Source of the DNA: an uncultured Chthonomonas sp.
Lineage (GTDB): Bacteria; Armatimonadota; Fimbriimonadia; Fimbriimonadales; Fimbriimonadaceae
Length of the DNA stretch: 47,744 nt
Assembly: GCA_964422285.1 (NCBI GenBank)
Contig: CAYRAX010000001.1
Span: 1-47,744 of the forward strand
Direction: 5' to 3'
In this document: positions 11,247 through 40,636 of the stretch, one piece after another
How positions within the stretch are numbered: position 1 is the stretch's first letter
How the letters are laid out: the number at the start of each line of letters is the position of its first letter
Program-made: the position numbers and the translations under genes
Notes under the pieces: generated by a model
Databases searched by the model: none
The model's input: the letters and a program-made list of their open reading frames with translations, nothing else
What the model was told of the DNA's origin: nothing

Positions 11247-11657
11247 TCAATTAGGCTCGGGCTTGAAGAGCCAGAAGTGGGCGCCCTGGTTATCGCAGAT
11301 GAGCGCGATTCGGCCGACGGTGGGGATATCAAAAGCCGGTACGCGGCACGAGCCACCAGCGGCTTCGGCTTTAGCAACAGACGAATCCACGTCGTCCACA
11401 TTGATGTAGGTGGACCAATGCGGCGGAACCTCCGCCATCTCGCCGACGGTGGCCATGATGCCGCACATCGCGACTTCACCCTTGCAGAACATCGTGTAGG
11501 TTCCCATCGGGCCCATATCCATCGACTTGGTCGTCCAGCCAAGCACGCTTGTGTAAAACTCGATTGCCTTGTTGACATCGGGCACGTTTACTTCGTGCCA
11601 AGTGAAAGTTGAACCAACGGTGAGCAAAAATTCATTGATTTCTTGAGTTTCAGCCAT
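11247..11657 (-). CDS. VOC/glyoxalase-family protein
   Basis: 136-aa product from ATG 11657 (GGAGGACAATTT ATG). VOC-like pattern FTWHEVNVPDVNKAIEFYTSVLGW ... GRIALICDNQGAHFWLF. The longer 225-aa track ORF has no SD. Confidence 0.75.
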   Translation of the reverse strand: MAETQEINEFLLTVGSTFTWHEVNVPDVNKAIEFYTSVLGWTTKSMDMGPMGTYTMFCKGEVAMCGIMATVGEMAEVPPHWSTYINVDDVDSSVAKAEAAGGSCRVPAFDIPTVGRIALICDNQGAHFWLFKPEPN

Positions 11658-11764
11658 AAATTGTCCTCCGCGCGCACGTTGGCGCGCACACTCGCAATTA
11701 TACGGCGCGACAGCTCGCTGGAGATCCACAATTCGCGACAAAAGCAAATTTTGCCTAGGTCTAC

Positions 11765-11793
11765 TTGGAAAAATGAGCAGGCTATGATAGAAT
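11765..11793 (+). promoter_or_regulatory. Sigma70-like promoter for the 11832 gene
   Basis: TTGGAA, an exact 17-nt spacer, then TAGAAT. A 5'UTR hairpin GGAGCA-N6-TGCTCC (11800-11817) and SD GGAGAGG follow. Confidence 0.4.
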
Positions 11794-11831
11794 ATGGGCG
11801 GAGCATGATATTGCTCCTGCGGAGAGGATTT

Positions 11832-12812
11832 ATGAAGAGATTGTTGTTTGTCGCCCTCGCGGCTACCGCTTTTGTGTCGGCTCAAGCTTCGTTTGAGCTT
11901 GCCCTGGTGCTGGATGTCGATCACGCAAATAGCAGAGCGGACATAAAGCGATTCGATGTTAACACTGGTGCGTACTTAGGTAGTTTTGGCGGCGGATATA
12001 TAAACTATACTGCCAACAATTCAGTGCTTACCTTGGATCAGGCAAATAGCGCAGTTTATGTCACGCAATCAAGTGCCGCGGTACTGAAGTTCAATTACAA
12101 CACTGGTGAGTATTTAGGGGAATTTTACCCTGTAAACACAATGATCTTTGGGGTAAGTTTGCAATCGAATACTCTCATCGGAGCGTGGACAGGAAACACG
12201 TCTTTCTTAACGCGTTATTCCACCAGCGGAACTTACGAAGGATCCTATTATGGTGGATTCGGTACAGGGTTGCGAGGTGCAGTTACATACAATGGCATGT
12301 TGTTCGCGCCAGACTCTGTTAACAAGCAACTGCTCAAGTGGAACTATGGCGCCCTGGGTAGCACGGCTACCGTAGCAGGTGCGATGCCTGGTTGGAATAG
12401 CGGTTATGGGTGGGAAGTTGAGGCGATCTCAAATCGCTTGTATTGGTCCGATCAATACAACAATCTCATAAACGCTAATGTCAACGCATCTGGAGTGATT
12501 ACCGGTAATTCTCTGATAAGTTTTGCGGGCCAAGGTATCACGTTCTCCCAAGGTCTGGGCAAAGGGCACGGCGACATGCTTTATTTGGGTGGTACCGATG
12601 CCGGACGAGCAAACGGAAAAGTGTGCCGTTACAATTCGGCAACGGGCCAATTTCGCGGTACCTTTGGTGCGGGATACTTGCATGATCCTTCATCAATTGA
12701 TGTCGTTCTTGCGCCCGAGCCGAGCGTGTGGTTTGGCCTTGCGTTTGGCGTGGGCTTGGTTGCTAAGCGCCGCCGAGCATCGTTCCATGAGCGGTCAAAT
12801 TTAGGAGTTTAG
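11832..12812 (+). CDS. PEP-CTERM-anchored secreted repeat protein (beta-propeller-like)
   Basis: Signal peptide MKRLLFVALAATAFVSAQA. Recurring motif RFDVNTGAYLGSFG / KFNYNTGEYLGEFY / RYSTSGTYEGSYYG / RYNSATGQFRGTFG. C-terminal APEPS, a TM segment and a KRRR sorting signal. Confidence 0.8.
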   Translation: MKRLLFVALAATAFVSAQASFELALVLDVDHANSRADIKRFDVNTGAYLGSFGGGYINYTANNSVLTLDQANSAVYVTQSSAAVLKFNYNTGEYLGEFYPVNTMIFGVSLQSNTLIGAWTGNTSFLTRYSTSGTYEGSYYGGFGTGLRGAVTYNGMLFAPDSVNKQLLKWNYGALGSTATVAGAMPGWNSGYGWEVEAISNRLYWSDQYNNLINANVNASGVITGNSLISFAGQGITFSQGLGKGHGDMLYLGGTDAGRANGKVCRYNSATGQFRGTFGAGYLHDPSSIDVVLAPEPSVWFGLAFGVGLVAKRRRASFHERSNLGV

Positions 12813-12860: not shown

Positions 12861-14507
12861 TCAGTCCGAATACCAGTCGACATTGCTCTCAACCATTGAA
12901 CTGGCTAAAGGCGTGGTCGCTGGAAAGGATGTACCACGGTAGTTTGGCGTAGTTCCTCCGTTCGTGTTGTTGTAAAAAGTTGAGTATGCACTACCGCCTC
13001 CTGCTGCAACCTTCGCGCTGCTTGGCGCGACGAACTCCGTGTTTAGCACGTAGCACGTAGCAGGACTTGTCATGCCGCTACCGCCAATTTGAATCATTGC
13101 ACTTGTGCCAGTGCACTCGATCATGCACCCATCGAGCGTTAGTGACGCGTCATTCCAAGGGTTATTTATGATGATGGCGCGGGCGGCTGTATCTAGTTGC
13201 GTGATCGAGCATCCAACAAAGTACATGTCGCGAAAATACATTTGGGTTCCCGAATTTGCGTAAAATCGAATAGCGGCGGCGTTATCCGTTGTTGTGCAGT
13301 GCACGTTGCAGGCTAAGAACGTGTCTCCGACCGGAATACCTAGAGGTGCAGCAGGGTTCGGGTCATCCTGCGTCGTTTCGAAACGGATTCGATTGCAATA
13401 CACACCTTCAAAAGATGAGTCGCGGATGGCGGCAGCAAGGCGCAAGTCCGCGCAATTGATCGCGGAGTAGGTGACAAAGCTTGCTCCCCTGCGCCATTCG
13501 GTGTTCCCAACGGAAACCGGCCAGTCGCAAGCCGAAACGTTACTGACGCTGCCGTTGTAGCTGTCGCCGCCGTGAATGTCCACCGCCCCGTCCGTAGTTC
13601 CATCAGCAAAAAAGCCGTCGACAGTCCAAGCAGAAGTACCACTTTCTATGCTGACCCCATAGCGTGCATTGATCACCTTGGATTGCAGAACCTTGGCATT
13701 GATGCATCTATCCAGGTGGATCGAGTACGAAGAGCCGGTACCAGCACCGGTGACGAGGTCGCGGGCGGTGCAACGCGAGACTTCAACATCACGCGAATAG
13801 TTAATCGAGAATCCGGCGAGCCGCGATTTTTCGCCGGAGCAATCCTGAAGGGTGATGCCAGCGCAAAAGCCAGCGCGTAGCCAAGAGTTATAGCCATTTT
13901 CGGTGCGCCCAACGAATTTGAAACCTTTGATGAGCACGTTCTCAACCACGGAGACGTTGTTCGGGAGTAAGGACAGCCGTGGATCATAGTCGGTATCGGG
14001 TGCCGGGTAGCTTTGCGTGAGAGGTGCTGTGAAGGTGACGTTGCTTCCCGAAACCGATCTTACTTGAACTAATTCCCCGCCAATATCACGCGAAACCGTC
14101 GGGAAACTTGCATTAGTTTCTTTCTTCTTTGTATCTCTCAAGAAGTACCACTGGCCCGGCGTCGGTGCGGTGCCAGAAAAGGCCACGGTTTGATCCCCCG
14201 GCTCCGCGCCGTTGGATAGCGCGGCGGAGCCGGTGTCGTCAAGGTCGAACTCGGATGAGCCCACCTGAAGACTCCAATGTCCCAAGCCTGGACTAGTCCC
14301 TAACGTCAGGTCGCGCACGCTGCCGCCGCGCTGCAACCTCAATTGGGAATTTGGCCCAGGTTGAAATACGATGGGTAAAGGTAGGTTCAGATCATATCGG
14401 CCCGAGATTTTCGTCCGACAGTTCTCTCCGATGCTCCGAGCAATTCGGGACGACAAAACGGACCCGGAACTGCGCTTACGAGCACGAAGTCTGGTGCTAC
14501 GCAACAT
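12861..14507 (-). CDS. Module 1 protein C: right-handed parallel beta-helix protein, no signal peptide
   Basis: Periodic beta-helix rungs (ITLQDCSG, VEVSRCTARD, INAKVLQSKV ...) and the motif DIHGGDSYNG. Paralogue of 37055..38701. Its start overlaps the stop of protein B by 11 nt. Confidence 0.75.
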   Translation of the reverse strand: MLRSTRLRARKRSSGSVLSSRIARSIGENCRTKISGRYDLNLPLPIVFQPGPNSQLRLQRGGSVRDLTLGTSPGLGHWSLQVGSSEFDLDDTGSAALSNGAEPGDQTVAFSGTAPTPGQWYFLRDTKKKETNASFPTVSRDIGGELVQVRSVSGSNVTFTAPLTQSYPAPDTDYDPRLSLLPNNVSVVENVLIKGFKFVGRTENGYNSWLRAGFCAGITLQDCSGEKSRLAGFSINYSRDVEVSRCTARDLVTGAGTGSSYSIHLDRCINAKVLQSKVINARYGVSIESGTSAWTVDGFFADGTTDGAVDIHGGDSYNGSVSNVSACDWPVSVGNTEWRRGASFVTYSAINCADLRLAAAIRDSSFEGVYCNRIRFETTQDDPNPAAPLGIPVGDTFLACNVHCTTTDNAAAIRFYANSGTQMYFRDMYFVGCSITQLDTAARAIIINNPWNDASLTLDGCMIECTGTSAMIQIGGSGMTSPATCYVLNTEFVAPSSAKVAAGGGSAYSTFYNNTNGGTTPNYRGTSFPATTPLASSMVESNVDWYSD

Positions 14508-15285
14508 GTTTGCACCGTCGTAGCCGAATCACTGTCAGCGTACACCAGCCCCCGAGAAGCAATGTTGTGCTTGGCTCCGGCACAACAACACGTCGAACGC
14601 CGTCAACAAATACTCCGGGGGCGCCTTGAGCCAATGGATAAACCCCGGACAAGTCGTCTTGTATCTTGGACATAATGGTCATCGTACGCGCCGACTTTGA
14701 CGTTTCAAGTGGGTTTAGGTGGTGGAGTTGTAACAATAGATTATCGACTCTATAACTAACCAGCTTTGTTGAAAAATCAATGCGAACTTTAATGTTGGTC
14801 CATTGTCCAAGATGCAATGGTACATCGAAATTGGGGAGAGATCCTCCGTACCCAAAAGTCGTTACAACCTGACTTTGGAAGTCAACGATAACACCCAGTG
14901 CCGTGCTAAGAAAGGGGAAGCCAATGCTTACGCGCTGGCCCACAAAGTCTTCTTTCGCCACCAACAAGCTAATGGAGTACTCCACAGCAGGTATCTGCGG
15001 CAAATTGTCGTACGGTGCGTAAATCCCCGCCAAGTCACCGTTTGAAACTGACCGAATTTCCAGCATCTTGTCCCCCTCGTAAGGCACGACGCCGCGCGTA
15101 GTCGAACGAACCATCGGCGCCGGGTGCGGATAGGGCCAAAATGTCGTGTCGATTGTCCAGGGCCCCTTTGGGTACAAATAATCAGCTGAATCCGCCTTGT
15201 AGGATTCAAACCCATCAAAGAATGTCTGCGCGTTGGATGCGATTGCAAATAGGGAAAAGAGCGACAACAATATAAGCTTTTTCAC
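14497..15285 (-). CDS. Module 1 protein B: secreted PEP-CTERM protein, lectin/LamG-like jelly-roll suspected
   Basis: GTG start 8 nt after GAGGAG. Signal peptide MKKLILLSLFSLFAIASNAQ, and C-terminal VPEPSTTLLLGGWCTLTVIRLRR. Paralogue of 38715..39521. Confidence 0.8.
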   Translation of the reverse strand: MKKLILLSLFSLFAIASNAQTFFDGFESYKADSADYLYPKGPWTIDTTFWPYPHPAPMVRSTTRGVVPYEGDKMLEIRSVSNGDLAGIYAPYDNLPQIPAVEYSISLLVAKEDFVGQRVSIGFPFLSTALGVIVDFQSQVVTTFGYGGSLPNFDVPLHLGQWTNIKVRIDFSTKLVSYRVDNLLLQLHHLNPLETSKSARTMTIMSKIQDDLSGVYPLAQGAPGVFVDGVRRVVVPEPSTTLLLGGWCTLTVIRLRRCKHVA

Positions 15286-15297
15286 AGTAATTTCTCC

Positions 15298-16143
15298 TCA
15301 TTGATATCTTTGTAGGGCCCACGTGATGCTCGTGGCTTGAACGGCGTTTGCGCCACTTGGAACGGATAAGACTACAGAGTAGAGGCCCTGATCGAGTTCA
15401 ATGTGAGCGGTGAAGGTATTGCTGCCCGCATCAGTTAACGTGAACACTTCATCAATCGATGAGATTTGGGACGTGTACGTCACTGGCGTGGCATCCAGCG
15501 TCGTCGCCTTGCGATAAGCCTGAACGCGCATATTGCGAACCGAGTTGGTTGCGAACGTTTGCGTCCACTTCACAAATAGCGACGCCATTACCGACGAGGT
15601 GACGTCGATATCGAAGGCGGTCGCTGAACTCCCGACCGAAATGTTTGACACCGACGTCCCGGTCACCGGCGGGTCAGTGTAACCCGGGCCCAGCGACGGT
15701 TGCCATACACCTGAAGGCCCACCCAAGATGACCGGGCCAGGATTTAGCCGTAGGCCACCTTCCTTAGGGTCTTCAGTGGCGATCGGAACTGCGGGGCCGT
15801 TGCCATCAAGGAGCAGTAGCGGTCCGCCTATCAATACACCGCGAAACTCTGCACAGTCTGCCCATGCGTGATACGGAGTGCCGGGACTACCGTAGTGAGC
15901 GACCAAGTCGCCGATTGATTTAGCGGTTGTACTTGGCGCGAGGCTGTAAGTCACGACGTTATTATCGCCTAGCCGCCTTCCGTCCATTGCATAAAACGAT
16001 CCTATCAAACGACGCGGCGCGGCGTCGGTGGCTTTCAGCACAAAACCAAGAGGAGATCGGCGTTCAACGCCGTCGTACTGCTTGAGTACCGGAACGAGCA
16101 CCACTTCGAAGGAATCTGCGGTGGTAGTGTTTTCAATGTACAA
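15298..16143 (-). CDS. Module 1 protein A, long part (281 aa), unknown function
   Basis: The ORF begins at TTG with no SD, in the same frame as the upstream 67-aa ORF across a single TAA. Paralogue of 39532..40461 (AEFRGVLIGGP, NPGPVILGGP, FDIDVT..LFVKW, ELDQGLYSVV). Confidence 0.6.
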   Translation of the reverse strand: MYIENTTTADSFEVVLVPVLKQYDGVERRSPLGFVLKATDAAPRRLIGSFYAMDGRRLGDNNVVTYSLAPSTTAKSIGDLVAHYGSPGTPYHAWADCAEFRGVLIGGPLLLLDGNGPAVPIATEDPKEGGLRLNPGPVILGGPSGVWQPSLGPGYTDPPVTGTSVSNISVGSSATAFDIDVTSSVMASLFVKWTQTFATNSVRNMRVQAYRKATTLDATPVTYTSQISSIDEVFTLTDAGSNTFTAHIELDQGLYSVVLSVPSGANAVQATSITWALQRYQ

Positions 16144-16164
16144 TACGGTGATACCGGCGGGAAC

Positions 16165-16368
16165 TTAAAAATCTACCCCCCCCCCGACATTAAGCGTTGC
16201 CAACAATGCGCCAGAAGCGTCGGTCGAATAGATTTTGGCCTGCACTATGCCGAAGTTAATGCCCCGGTAGCTTGACCCCGGTCGAACAGCGACTTTGGTC
16301 GACTCGTTGGCTTGTACTAAGACTCCGTTACTGACAGGCCCTTGTTCAAACACTGTTGGAAATGGCAT
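16165..16368 (-). CDS. Module 1 protein A, SD-bearing N-terminal ORF (67 aa) ending just after the poly-G tract
   Basis: GGGAGG lies 10 nt before ATG 16368. Codons 61-63 are GGG GGG GGG inside the G10 run, and TAA follows four codons later. Confidence 0.5.
   Translation of the reverse strand: MPFPTVFEQGPVSNGVLVQANESTKVAVRPGSSYRGINFGIVQAKIYSTDASGALLATLNVGGGVDF
16176..16185 (-). repeat. Homopolymer: 10 C on plus strand = G10 in the minus-strand coding frame
   Basis: Counted directly: atcta-CCCCCCCCCC-gacat. Confidence 0.95.
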
Positions 16369-16405
16369 GTTGTCCTAACCTCCCTGAGGAATCGTCCTCG
16401 TTTTC

Positions 16406-34232: not shown

Positions 34233-35192
34233 ATGAAATCAAAGAGAGTTACCCTGGCCGCGCTGGCCATGGCGTGCTTGGGCAGTGGAGCGAACGCTGT
34301 CCTGTTCGCCGACAATTTTAACACTGACACGTCTGCCAGCTGGGCAGTCAACAAGTCATCGCTGACCGCCGTGAGCAGCGCAACGTTTGGCTTTGACTAC
34401 AGCACCTATGGCATTCCTTCCGCGCCAAATTCAAGCGGCGATACGCACGGATTGAAGATGGATGCGAACACCAATGCGACGACGCAAGCGTTTAGCGGCT
34501 TGAGCGTTTCTCCGCTGGGTCAATCGTTTACGGGCGACTATGAAATGCGCGCTGACGTTTGGATGAACTTCGTCGGACCGGCCCCGGCTGGCGGCAGCGG
34601 TTCGACTCAAGCGGGCGGCATGGGCATCGGCACTGCGGGCAGTACCGCCCAGTGGGCTGGTGGTGCACAAGACAGCATCCACTTCAGCGCAACGACTGAC
34701 GGTAACTCGGCAACCGACTGGCGTGCCTATTCGAGCGCCGCGCCCAGCGCATATGCCGATGCAAGCAGCGTTTACGCGGCTGGCGCGGTAGCGGGCAACC
34801 GAAACAACAGCAATGCTTACTACTCGAGCTTTGTTGGTCAATCCGCTCCATCAGCCCAAACGACGCTTTTCGCGACCCAAACCGGTACCGCGCTGAACGG
34901 CACGCTCGCCTTTGGTTGGCACGACATGCGCGTCAAGCGGGTAGGAAACATTGTCACTTGGTCGGTTGACGGCAAGCTGATCGCGACTGTTGACGCTTCG
35001 ACCGTAACGCTGGGTGGCAACAACATCTTGCTCAACTACTACGACACAAACGGAACCGCCTCAACGGCTGCCAACAAGTTCCTGACCTGCATGATCGTTG
35101 ACAACCTGCAAGTCGTACCAGAGCCGAGCACTTGGCTCGCTCTTGGTCTCGGATCAGCAATGCTGCTCCGACGCCGCGCTCGCAAGTCGTAA
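34233..35192 (+). CDS. PEP-CTERM-anchored secreted protein, LamG/DUF1080-like jelly-roll suspected
   Basis: Signal peptide (LAALAMACLGSGANA), N-terminal FADNFNTD, and C-terminal VDNLQVVPEPSTWLALGLGSAMLLRRRARKS. Confidence 0.8.
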   Translation: MKSKRVTLAALAMACLGSGANAVLFADNFNTDTSASWAVNKSSLTAVSSATFGFDYSTYGIPSAPNSSGDTHGLKMDANTNATTQAFSGLSVSPLGQSFTGDYEMRADVWMNFVGPAPAGGSGSTQAGGMGIGTAGSTAQWAGGAQDSIHFSATTDGNSATDWRAYSSAAPSAYADASSVYAAGAVAGNRNNSNAYYSSFVGQSAPSAQTTLFATQTGTALNGTLAFGWHDMRVKRVGNIVTWSVDGKLIATVDASTVTLGGNNILLNYYDTNGTASTAANKFLTCMIVDNLQVVPEPSTWLALGLGSAMLLRRRARKS

Positions 35193-38714: not shown

Positions 38715-39521
38715 TTACGCACGCCGAGGTCTCCTTGAAAGTAATAGGGCACTGACTCCTAACGTAACTCCCACCGCACTACTCGGTTCTGGCACGGCCT
38801 GAAGAGTCACATCGTCCACGAGCATGCCTGGAATACCTTGGTCCACTGGGTATTCATCGGCGTAGTTGGCTGTTGTAGAAACTCCAAAACTAAATCTTTC
38901 CACTTTGTACGGAGGTGGAGTCTGCCCTGTGACAAAAGTGCGCGAATCCATCAGCTTCCAATTGTAATAAAGGTAGGTCTTTTTTGACGTCCAATCTATA
39001 CGAACTCTTAGCTCATTCCAAGCGTCCCGAGTCACAACTAATGCCTGCGGCTGCGCGCCGAGTCTTCTAAAAGTGTTGTTGAATAGGTCAATCTGCGCGA
39101 TACCATCTGCTGAATTCCCTCCGTTGAAGAGCGATGTGTGTAGGCCGAATGTCAGGATGGTTTTGACGTTGTAAGATTTCGGCACTGCAAATCGAAAAGC
39201 CATATCCACAACGGGATGCGAAATGCTGTTTGAGTTCAAACTGTGTCGCAGATTGCGATTGCCCTTGATCGCGCTCCCTCGAAAGTCGTACATCTGGTTG
39301 CCGCTGTAGGGCGAGACTCCATCTTTCGGCCCTTCGACGACGGTCGGAAATCGTTCGCCGGCGTCAAGGTCAATATCAAAGTCGCCGAATGAGTAAAGCG
39401 CATCCCAATCCTGGGTTCCGGGGCGATAAGATTCCCAATCGTCGTGGAACAGGGTTTGGGCGTTTGTGATCGACGCAACGGCAAGAGTGCAAAAAGCAAT
39501 CGAAATAGATTTGAATTTCAT
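38715..39521 (-). CDS. Module 2 protein B: secreted PEP-CTERM protein, lectin/LamG-like jelly-roll suspected
   Basis: ATG 39521 lies 5 nt after AAGGAGG. Signal peptide MKFKSISIAFCTLAVASITNAQ, and C-terminal VPEPSSAVGVTLGVSALLLSRRPRR. The track ORF start 39617 lies inside protein A. Confidence 0.8.
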   Translation of the reverse strand: MKFKSISIAFCTLAVASITNAQTLFHDDWESYRPGTQDWDALYSFGDFDIDLDAGERFPTVVEGPKDGVSPYSGNQMYDFRGSAIKGNRNLRHSLNSNSISHPVVDMAFRFAVPKSYNVKTILTFGLHTSLFNGGNSADGIAQIDLFNNTFRRLGAQPQALVVTRDAWNELRVRIDWTSKKTYLYYNWKLMDSRTFVTGQTPPPYKVERFSFGVSTTANYADEYPVDQGIPGMLVDDVTLQAVPEPSSAVGVTLGVSALLLSRRPRRA

Positions 39522-39531
39522 TGTGTCCTCC

Positions 39532-40461
39532 TTAAAGGAATCGTTGCAAGTAAACGTACACCGCGATTTCGTAAGTTTGGCTTGTTGAAAAATAGACTCG
39601 ATACTTTCCTGGATCAAGTTCTACATGATTAGCTGAAACATAAGGGCCAGCAAAAAAGAATGTTTCTTGGACATTCGCGTTTGCTGAAACAATCAAGGTT
39701 GGATCGTTCGTGTACGTGGTCGGGTATGCGGTTACGGTCAGGTCTCCATCGACTTCTCCATTTAGATTCCACCGCACGAACAGCCGAGTCAGTCCCGCTC
39801 CAGAAACGTCAATGTCCACGTACTGCGGCGTTTCATCGGTGATCACTGAATCCCAAATTTGTGCCGCCGGTTCGATGCATGTCCCCGTGTTGCGCGCCGG
39901 TTGCTCCACTCCGTTCGGGCCAAGAATCACCGGTCCTGGCTGGATTGTCAACCCGTAGCTTAGAGGACTGTAACCTGTTTCCGGAGTGCTCACGTTTGCT
40001 GCGGGCGATCCTTCCACGACAAGCATTGGGCCGCCTTGGAGTACACCGCGAAACTCCACCGCATCAACCCACATGCTGTCCGTGCCAAACAGGAGGTACC
40101 CTACTGTTTCGGGATCTGAAGAGGCACTAACCGAAACAACTGCATCGGAAGTCCCAGGGGGTATCAGTGCGATGCCACTAGCGCTGAAAAACGTGCCCAC
40201 AAGTGTCGCATTCTCCTGTGACGCCATTTGAATAACATAGGACATCGGCGACATTGCAATGCCGCTCCACAATGTGTTGATCAACGGCTCGACAGTGACG
40301 TGAGCATCGCCGGAAGATGAGAGCCAATACGTCGCTTGTGTCGCCGTTAGGTCGCCAGTTGTGCCCGGGTCCACGGCGAGAGTTGCCCCAATGCCGCTCG
40401 AATTGATAAACACGGCTAATTGATTGGAGCCAAGATTATGAAAACGATAACCTAGCCCCAC
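39532..40461 (-). CDS. Module 2 protein A, long part (309 aa as called), unknown function
   Basis: The called GTG start has no SD, and the frame stays open upstream through the poly-G tract. Paralogue of 15298..16143. Confidence 0.65.
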   Translation of the reverse strand: MGLGYRFHNLGSNQLAVFINSSGIGATLAVDPGTTGDLTATQATYWLSSSGDAHVTVEPLINTLWSGIAMSPMSYVIQMASQENATLVGTFFSASGIALIPPGTSDAVVSVSASSDPETVGYLLFGTDSMWVDAVEFRGVLQGGPMLVVEGSPAANVSTPETGYSPLSYGLTIQPGPVILGPNGVEQPARNTGTCIEPAAQIWDSVITDETPQYVDIDVSGAGLTRLFVRWNLNGEVDGDLTVTAYPTTYTNDPTLIVSANANVQETFFFAGPYVSANHVELDPGKYRVYFSTSQTYEIAVYVYLQRFL

Positions 40462-40562
40462 GGTAAAAGCAAATGGAACCCTAGCTGCCCCCCCCCAGTA
40501 ATTTTAACAGGTGTTCCGATAGGTTTTGACGTTTGCTGAACGTATGTAGACGGTATTGACAA
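40452..40562 (-). CDS. Module 2 SD-bearing short ORF (36 aa) running through the poly-G tract; probable true 5' end of protein A
   Basis: GGGAGG (40569-40574) lies 6 nt before TTG 40562. Translation: MSIPSTYVQQTSKPIGTPVKITGGG, then out-of-frame QLGFHLLLPWG and a stop. Confidence 0.45.
   Translation of the reverse strand: MSIPSTYVQQTSKPIGTPVKITGGGQLGFHLLLPWG
40488..40496 (-). repeat. Homopolymer: 9 C on plus strand = G9 on the minus coding strand
   Basis: Counted directly: agctg-CCCCCCCCC-agtaa. Confidence 0.95.
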
Positions 40563-40607
40563 TTATTTCCTCCCTAAACACCTCGGCACCATCCGAGGGA
40601 CAAGAGA

Positions 40608-40636
40608 ATATTACAACACTATTGATGATAAAGCAA
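40608..40636 (-). promoter_or_regulatory. Sigma70-like promoter of module 2
   Basis: Minus strand reads TTGCTT, an exact 17-nt spacer, then TAATAT. A 5'UTR hairpin CCTCGG-N6-CCGAGG precedes the SD. Confidence 0.4.

Follow-up and report, generated by a model that had tools for sequence, protein, structure and literature searches.

The 47,744-nt stretch of DNA analysed here (the window; the whole of contig CAYRAX010000001.1 from an uncultured Chthonomonas sp. of the Fimbriimonadaceae, Armatimonadota) contains two modules of three genes, A, B and C, both on the minus strand. A PcrA-like helicase encoded in the window shares 68% and 63% identity with its counterparts in two metagenome-assembled genomes of Fimbriimonadaceae, in agreement with a placement in the Armatimonadota. 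All coordinates below are positions in this window. In the first gene of module 2, A2, which is read on the minus strand, a run of nine guanines (G9; other runs are written in the same way) lies between a start codon with a Shine-Dalgarno (SD) sequence and a long open reading frame (ORF) in a different frame. The first gene of module 1, A1, carries a G10 run in its own 5' coding region. The features of both modules are listed in Table 1, where L numbers denote the loci of relatives described below.

Translation from TTG 40562 gives (M)SIPSTYVQQTSKPIGTPVKIT-GGG into the G9 run, continues as QLGFHLLLPWG and ends at TAG 40454-40452. A sequence-only reading of the same DNA had described the GGGAGG, the TTG, the G9 run, this out-of-frame tail and its stop, and each detail was correct when re-read. 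It had also described a 309-aa ORF (39532-40461) that is open upstream through the tract and has only a GTG start with no SD, which is confirmed on the minus strand: the frame is open across the tract (NYWGGAARVPFAFTVGLGY) back to TAA 40507-40505, the earliest start in the ORF is GTG 40461, and the gcttttacc that precedes it contains no purine-rich SD. When the tract was edited in silico, G10 gave a product of 343 aa, G7 of 342 aa, G9 of 36 aa and G8 of 26 aa. The expectation that ten or seven G would join the two parts into a gene of about 343 codons thus holds.

Table 1. Features of the A2 locus and of the two A-B-C modules in the window.
Feature	Position	Strand	Remarks
Shine-Dalgarno of A2, GGGAGG	40569-40574	-	spacer AAATAA (6 nt) before TTG; identical in L001, L003 and L006
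A2 start codon, TTG	40560-40562	-	aligned with the ATG/TTG starts of homologues
Leader frame of A2 as sequenced	40452-40562	-	36 codons to TAG 40454-40452; truncated product of the proposed OFF state
G9 homopolymer of A2 (C9 on the plus strand)	40488-40496	-	begins at codon 23 and spans codons 23-25; proposed switch
A2 body	39532-40487	-	-1 frame relative to the start; intact to TAA 39534-39532
Candidate promoter of module 2	40608-40636	-	TTGCTT 40636-40631, 17-nt spacer, TAATAT 40613-40608; picked by eye
Hairpin in the 5' untranslated region of A2, CCTCGG-atggtg-CCGAGG	40581-40598	-	directly upstream of the SD; kept in L001 and L006
B2	38715-39521	-	signal peptide and PEP-CTERM; SD AAGGAGG overlaps the A2 stop (TAAGGAGGACACAATG)
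C2	37055-38701	-	about 548 aa; likely start ATG 38701 (MRNSMLRS), 13 nt after the B2 stop
A1	15298-16368	-	SD GGGAGG 16384-16379; start ATG 16368
G10 homopolymer of A1	16176-16185	-	codon 62, in frame with ATG 16368
B1	14497-15285	-	PEP-CTERM-like; own SD TGAGGAGAAATTACTGTG
C1	12861-14507	-	beta-helix-like; overlaps B1 (ATGTTGCGTAG)

Relatives of A are few. A search with the fused A2 sequence returned only 8 clusters among 5.8 billion proteins, and an exhaustive search with a profile of the A family returned 28 clusters among 1.84 billion representatives. The family was absent from a pattern scan of GTDB species representatives, and a scan of Joint Genome Institute (JGI) metagenomes contributed one new locus only (L020). 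The DNA of the homologues was read from the contigs that encode them; the relatives of A are denoted by the L numbers of their loci, with 214 kb fetched in total. Another member of the family, P0030 (353 aa, in frame and without a tract), lies on a 41,346-nt NCBI contig. It may come from the same assembly as the window, in which case the genome would hold three or more modules, with a tract in two of them.

The homologues define the start of the gene. At the position of TTG 40562, the start codon is ATG in L004, L029-38 and L009-12 and TTG in L001, L003, L006-8 and L013, and the N-terminus MS[ILV]PSTY[VI]Q is conserved there in every homologue whose start was read. The SD is GAGAGG in L004 and L029, compared with GGGAGG in L003 and L006, and seven tract-less or in-frame lineages translate unbroken from the homologous ATG or TTG. 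Because the homologues start at this position with a conserved N-terminus, TTG 40562 is the native start and GTG 40461 is not. The relatives were also checked for tract-less orthologues that begin at the GTG with an SD of their own, and here too the homologues use the position of TTG 40562. From these alignments, GTG 40461 is a gene-calling artefact on the shifted frame, and the 343-codon model represents the architecture that is canonical for the family. The annotation has to be corrected accordingly, since the deposited calls of 309 aa (A2) and 268 aa (A1) each lack part of a longer protein, of about 343 aa for A2 and 356 aa for A1. In many members of the A family, gene callers break up the gene or place its start wrongly.

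Tracts of varied length recur across the A family, as was found when the tract lengths of relatives were compared in the way the sequence-only reading had proposed. We call an allele ON if its tract leaves the gene in frame and OFF if it does not. At the A2-type site, at about codons 22-25, the window reads ACT-G9-CAG and is OFF, needing G10 or G7. L005, which comes from another sample and a diverged strain and is 93.6% identical in nucleotide sequence to the window, has an identical G9 and is OFF as well. In two samples with syntenic loci (L001 and L002) the sequence is AC-G9-CAT, which is OFF in the opposite wrong frame and needs G8 or G11. All other alleles of this type are ON, with G8 in L004 and in ten samples (L029-38), G14 in L015, G10 in L020, an interrupted tract, GGGTGGGG, in L003 and no tract in L006-8 and L009-13. 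At the A1-type site, codon 62, the G10 of window A1 is in frame and is followed by a nonsense TAA. L014, which is 99.3% identical in nucleotide sequence to window A1, has G11 and is OFF, and six samples (L023-28; at least 90% identity to window A1) have G13 and are ON.

Seen over the seven tract-bearing lineages, the in-frame lengths are G8, G10, G13 and G14, and the out-of-frame lengths are G9 (in two contexts) and G11. Wherever the tract of a relative is interrupted or absent, the gene is in frame. Gain or loss of a repeat unit in silico toggles between the full-length and the truncated frame in all seven. Branches of the family differ in where the tract lies, which is either near codon 23 or near codon 62. 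G10, G11 and G13 are all found among A1 orthologues with at least 90% amino-acid identity, and L014 and window A1 differ at only 12 places over 1661 nt, the tract indel being one of these. Cluster members at an identity of at least 90% show these states again, with a 297-aa form that has the N-terminus MSGGGVDFE in three distinct proteins (Logan, ENA) and the 357-aa full-length form in two. P0035, P0038, P0039, P0046, P0049 and P0050, for which there are protein sequences only, have poly-Gly stretches that coincide with these two tract positions, and a number of their N-termini resemble wrong-frame fusions; both observations are suggestive only.

Some further details of these alleles were noted. 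In four of the seven tract-bearing lineages (window A1 at 16175-16173, L029, L015 and L020) a TAA or TAG directly follows the G run. The in-frame reading of these tracts is GTA-A/G..., and the loss of one G makes an immediate stop. Of the 12 differences that separate L014 from the window, nine fall within 40 nt (15688-15727), mostly spaced in multiples of three; this part of A1 looks like a short patch of recombination. The differences between A2 and L005 cluster in the 3' third of the gene (39586-39850). L022, the JGI contig with the A1 orthologue P0013, has its first nucleotide 24 nt before the internal TTG, just 3' of the expected tract; an assembly that broke off at a heterogeneous or hard-to-sequence tract could explain this contig end.

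Homopolymers are the commonest sites of indel errors, and the G9 of A2 could be a misread G10 in a gene that is intact and invariant. The window is a single contig, the related records are metagenome-assembled genomes, and one added G mends the frame. We consider such an error very unlikely, given that L005, assembled independently from its own sample and strain, has the same G9, and that OFF lengths recur over independent samples, both in L001 and L002 and in the three proteins with MSGGGVDFE. The in-frame G13 seen in six samples argues that assemblers resolve these tracts consistently. In all, G9, G11 and G13 are each found again in independent samples.

The tracts are not expected from the composition of the DNA. 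The window contains 156 G/C runs of length 4, 24 of length 5, two of length 6, none of length 7 or 8, and one each of length 9 and 10. In dinucleotide-preserving shuffles 0.11 matches to G9 are expected, and the observed count was reached in 0 of 100 shuffles. Only two homopolymers in the window, of whatever base, reach 8 nt; they consist of G and lie in the 5' coding regions of A1 and A2. Throughout the 214 kb fetched from relatives, homopolymers of at least 8 nt are without exception coding-strand G runs in A genes, and they all start no later than codon 65. Among the glycine codons, GGG is used least in the genes of the window (182 of 1231, 14.8%); GGGGGG encodes one of 115 Gly-Gly pairs, and not one of the 15 other Gly-Gly-Gly triplets is written as G9. 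Because glycine codon usage disfavours GGG, the homopolymer of A2 is not a by-product of encoding glycine, and this usage argues for selection that would act on the homopolymer itself.

To describe selection on the out-of-frame gene we used the ratio of nonsynonymous to synonymous substitution rates (dN/dS), estimated by the method of Nei-Gojobori. Between the two G9 alleles of A2, those of the window and L005, dN/dS is 0.19 at a dS of 0.22, and between the window and ON alleles it is 0.13-0.16. For A1 the values are 0.04-0.06. The 309-codon body of A2 contains no internal stop. This pattern fits a gene that would have been expressed over much of its evolution, which is what a reversible switch would predict. 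It is hard to combine with a plain pseudogene, in which A2 would be frameshifted and decaying and the tract incidental, since the OFF alleles are under purifying selection and the body is free of stops. A2 is out of frame as sequenced and A1 on the same contig has a nonsense codon, as a pseudogene would suggest, but the promoter-like region, the SD and the leader are almost perfectly conserved, and tracts made of the rarest glycine codon recur at two positions in the family. We regard the pseudogene as highly improbable.

We propose that the poly-G tract of A2, a simple sequence repeat, probably switches the phase of translation by slipped-strand mispairing. With G9, ribosomes that start at the SD-bearing TTG 40562 would terminate after 36 codons, which corresponds to phase OFF. 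Slippage in replication that adds one G (G10) or removes two (G7) would restore a frame of 343 or 342 codons, i.e. phase ON, and the window allele would be an OFF allele one insertion away from ON. Switching would be reversible and frequent within a clonal population, the product of A may be associated with the cell surface, and the OFF state could lower the expression of B and C through polarity. A contingency switch had already been suggested in the sequence-only reading. At the level of the family, good support for it comes from the recurrence of tracts, their variation in length, the codon usage and the purifying selection; the variation in length is that of A1 and of the homologous site in other lineages. 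Gating of the whole module by the switch, which had also been suggested, is supported only in part: polarity could act, but B2 has a strong SD of its own that allows separate initiation. As B2 and B1 both have their own SDs, B can initiate independently, and any effect on B and C must come via polarity, over about 930 untranslated nt.

Several observations weigh against a phase switch in A2. No ON allele and no length variant of the A2 tract was found, and the two DNA alleles (window and L005) are both G9; the ON and OFF states with tracts of different length come from the paralogue A1 and, at the homologous site, from other lineages. The relatives are all known from short metagenomic contigs. 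The nonsense codon of A1 shows that irreversible inactivation also occurs in the A family. A has no signal peptide and no match in Pfam, PHROG, NCBIfam or the PDB (the last searched with the family profile), so that the rationale of a surface structure comes only from the PEP-CTERM neighbour.

A rival explanation is a fixed G9 with a constitutive frameshift, in which the gene is expressed by recoding or reinitiation and the tract tunes the level of expression. The presence of G9 in both alleles of this lineage, together with a dN/dS of 0.19 in the body, would agree with a gene that is permanently out of frame and expressed nonetheless. The possible routes are slippage of RNA polymerase on the G run, ribosomal frameshifting on GGG-GGG-GGG and reinitiation at GTG 40461. 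On the whole we find this explanation unlikely. The out-of-frame arrangement is not conserved, as orthologues are in frame (G8, G10, G13, G14 or no tract) or shifted in the opposite direction. Well-documented transcriptional slippage in bacteria involves A/T runs, which counts against recoding on G9. No stimulatory structure is seen either: the 173-nt region 40612-40440 folds with -37.9 kcal/mol, compared with a mean of -44.6 for shuffled sequences (z = +1.8). For reinitiation, which had been put forward as a source of low expression, the stop of the leader frame lies only 7 nt past GTG 40461. The route is possible but unsupported, as the GTG has no SD and an equivalent start is absent from the other OFF alleles. 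A product initiated there would lack two predicted beta strands.

In genes with programmed slippage or frameshifting, such as dnaX and those of IS transposases, the out-of-frame arrangement and the length of the tract are conserved among orthologues. A2 resembles them in that a homopolymer parts two reading frames of one gene. It differs in that its orthologues are in frame or shifted either way, the tract varies in length and no downstream structure is present.

The closest parallel to the phase switch proposed for A2 is found in the poly-G/poly-C contingency loci of Campylobacter jejuni, Neisseria and Haemophilus, which vary by slipped-strand mispairing within the 5' coding region. Both window genes have a G/C homopolymer in this region, A2 with G9 at codon 23 and A1 with G10 at codon 62. 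Like those loci, the A family has G/C runs of 8-14 nt within the first 25-65 codons, and a change of +/-1 nt toggles between a full-length product and one of 24-78 aa. Other shared properties are several paralogous loci per genome, tract lengths that differ between near-identical strains and the use of a disfavoured codon. Unlike in those genera, the host is a free-living or environmental member of the Fimbriimonadaceae and not a host-adapted pathogen, and A is a tiny unannotated family, with a switch in A2 that is proposed from its sequence.

Homopolymeric contingency loci are textbook knowledge in host-adapted pathogens; to our knowledge they are hardly documented in uncultured environmental phyla. 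In the literature searched we found no paper that ties Armatimonadetes or Armatimonadota to phase variation or phase-variable genes, or Fimbriimonas to homopolymeric tracts. The mechanism itself is textbook, and what is new is the setting, i.e. an uncultured member of the Armatimonadota, a tiny unannotated family, two tract positions and a hypervariable locus.

Two earlier studies are of relevance to a short repeat at this place in a gene. According to Orsi et al. (2010, PMC2831843), a shift in the 5' poly(A) tract of inlA, a gene for a surface protein in Listeria monocytogenes, leads to a very short truncated peptide, strains are found in either state, and 5' homopolymers are argued to be a general device of inactivation in prokaryotes. 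The tract of inlA described there is poly(A) and that of A2 is poly(G), and the tracts of the A family are common to many paralogues and occupy two alternative positions. By Lin & Kussell (2012, PMC3315296), the enrichment of simple repeats at the N-terminus in 42 cultured species is read as evolutionary tuning for phase variation. The A2 tract follows the pattern described there, in that it is located near the N-terminus and a frameshift leads to a non-functional product; the host lineage is uncultured and lies outside the survey of 42 species.

The A-B locus is hypervariable. In L006, a very close relative, the peptidyl-prolyl isomerase (PPIase) and nitroreductase genes are 95.9% and 94.2% identical in nucleotide sequence to those of the window. 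At the same locus (window 38715-40520, L006 5690-7474) the body of A is 57% and B is 53.7% identical in nucleotide sequence, and a full-length alignment of A gives 53% amino-acid identity. Identity is near-perfect from the core of the promoter-like region, over hairpin and SD, to about codon 19; further upstream it is interrupted by a short variable patch at ~40705-40670. After about codon 19 the identity decays over ~25 nt and collapses at the position of the tract, which is absent from L006. As the contigs stop within C, the 3' boundary of the variable stretch lies outside the comparison.

This alignment places the tract at the boundary of a conserved leader and a replaceable cassette. One possibility is a combined variation of phase and allele, in which the tract switches expression, and the leader, perhaps together with the tract, would anchor recombinational replacement of an A-B(-C) cassette or provide its break point. 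We think this a doubtful extension of the phase switch, to which we give a small chance. If true, the locus would control the choice of variant as well as its expression, and would be an analogue, in environmental Armatimonadota, of the antigenic-variation loci of pathogens. The ON and OFF alleles across samples, together with the hypervariable locus, point to strong fluctuating selection on a module associated with the cell envelope, and phage, grazers or surface attachment are possible selective agents.

The region upstream of the leader contains a candidate promoter and a hairpin. The block GTGTTGTAAnAT at the candidate promoter is kept in L001, L003 and L006, and a similar block, GTGTTATAGAAT, is found upstream of A1. 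The candidate was below the threshold of a consensus promoter scan and not listed by it, and the assignment of TTGCTT/TAATAT as the promoter of module 2 is weak and inferred. The hairpin of L003 is GCCTCA-attgttgc-TGAGGC, in which the pairing is retained with changes on both sides. A1 has a hairpin, GAGGA-cgat-TCCTC, directly upstream of its SD (16386-16399, minus strand), and in L029 this position is taken by a hairpin of another sequence. A hairpin before the SD could be a 5' stabiliser, an operator or the site of a regulator.

In window A1 the in-frame TAA (16167-16165) is located three codons past the tract, and all three frames are closed after the tract. The relatives with 99% identity (L014, P0018 and P0020) have GAA at this codon. 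The TAA is either a nonsense knock-out or a G-to-T base-call error beside the homopolymer.

The AlphaFold2 model of the fused 343-aa A2 is all-beta, with a mean predicted local distance difference test score (pLDDT) of 79.7 and residues 1-14 disordered. Its only fold matches in the PDB and BFVD by Foldseek were Cry toxins, vicilins, CBM22 and phage tail proteins; with TM-scores of at most 0.26 these reflect a generic beta-sandwich or jelly-roll and are uninformative.

According to the profile searches, B2 has the features of a PEP-CTERM protein, i.e. the PEP motif, a transmembrane helix and a basic tail. Its C-terminus is VPEPSSAVGVTLGVSALLLSRRPRRA, with a score of 18.4 for TIGR02595 (cut-off 16) and of 14.8 for Pfam PF07589, below the cut-off of 20.7. 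The signal in B1 is weaker and falls under both cut-offs. From B alone, a role of the module in the cell envelope is a reasonable guess.

C is a protein of ~550 aa with a weak, sub-threshold signal for a right-handed beta-helix. It has no sequence match in the PDB and only four clusters of homologues, and its AlphaFold2 model is poor (pLDDT 44). The start of C2 was placed by alignment with C1 and is thus inferred.

The triplet of A (~340 aa), B (~270 aa) and C (~550 aa) is kept wherever the contig is long enough, and its neighbours vary by locus, being PPIase and nitroreductase genes, ribosomal L10/L12, che genes or DUF1232 genes. In the window the flanks are ordinary chromosomal genes, among others those for cyclophilin, nitroreductase, Ppx/GppA, UbiD and GH53.

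A phage origin of A was considered and rejected: relatives of A are absent from IMG/VR and there are no PHROG matches, and the context of the window and of L029 is that of chromosomal housekeeping genes. Two loci with a tract-less member of the family carry a Mu-like gpT major capsid gene and small ORFs ~1.5-3 kb upstream of the A gene (L009 3096-6554, L010 367-3825). This capsid cluster is probably an unrelated prophage or a remnant similar to a gene transfer agent.

Two other ORFs of the window, both on the plus strand, have features of PEP-CTERM proteins. The ORF at 34233-35192 passes Pfam PF07589 with a score of 21.4 (cut-off 20.7), and the ORF at 11643-12812 has a C-terminus of the PEP-CTERM type, APEPSVWFGLAFGVGLVAKRRRA. 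By these predictions the contig is rich in candidate exosortase cargo.

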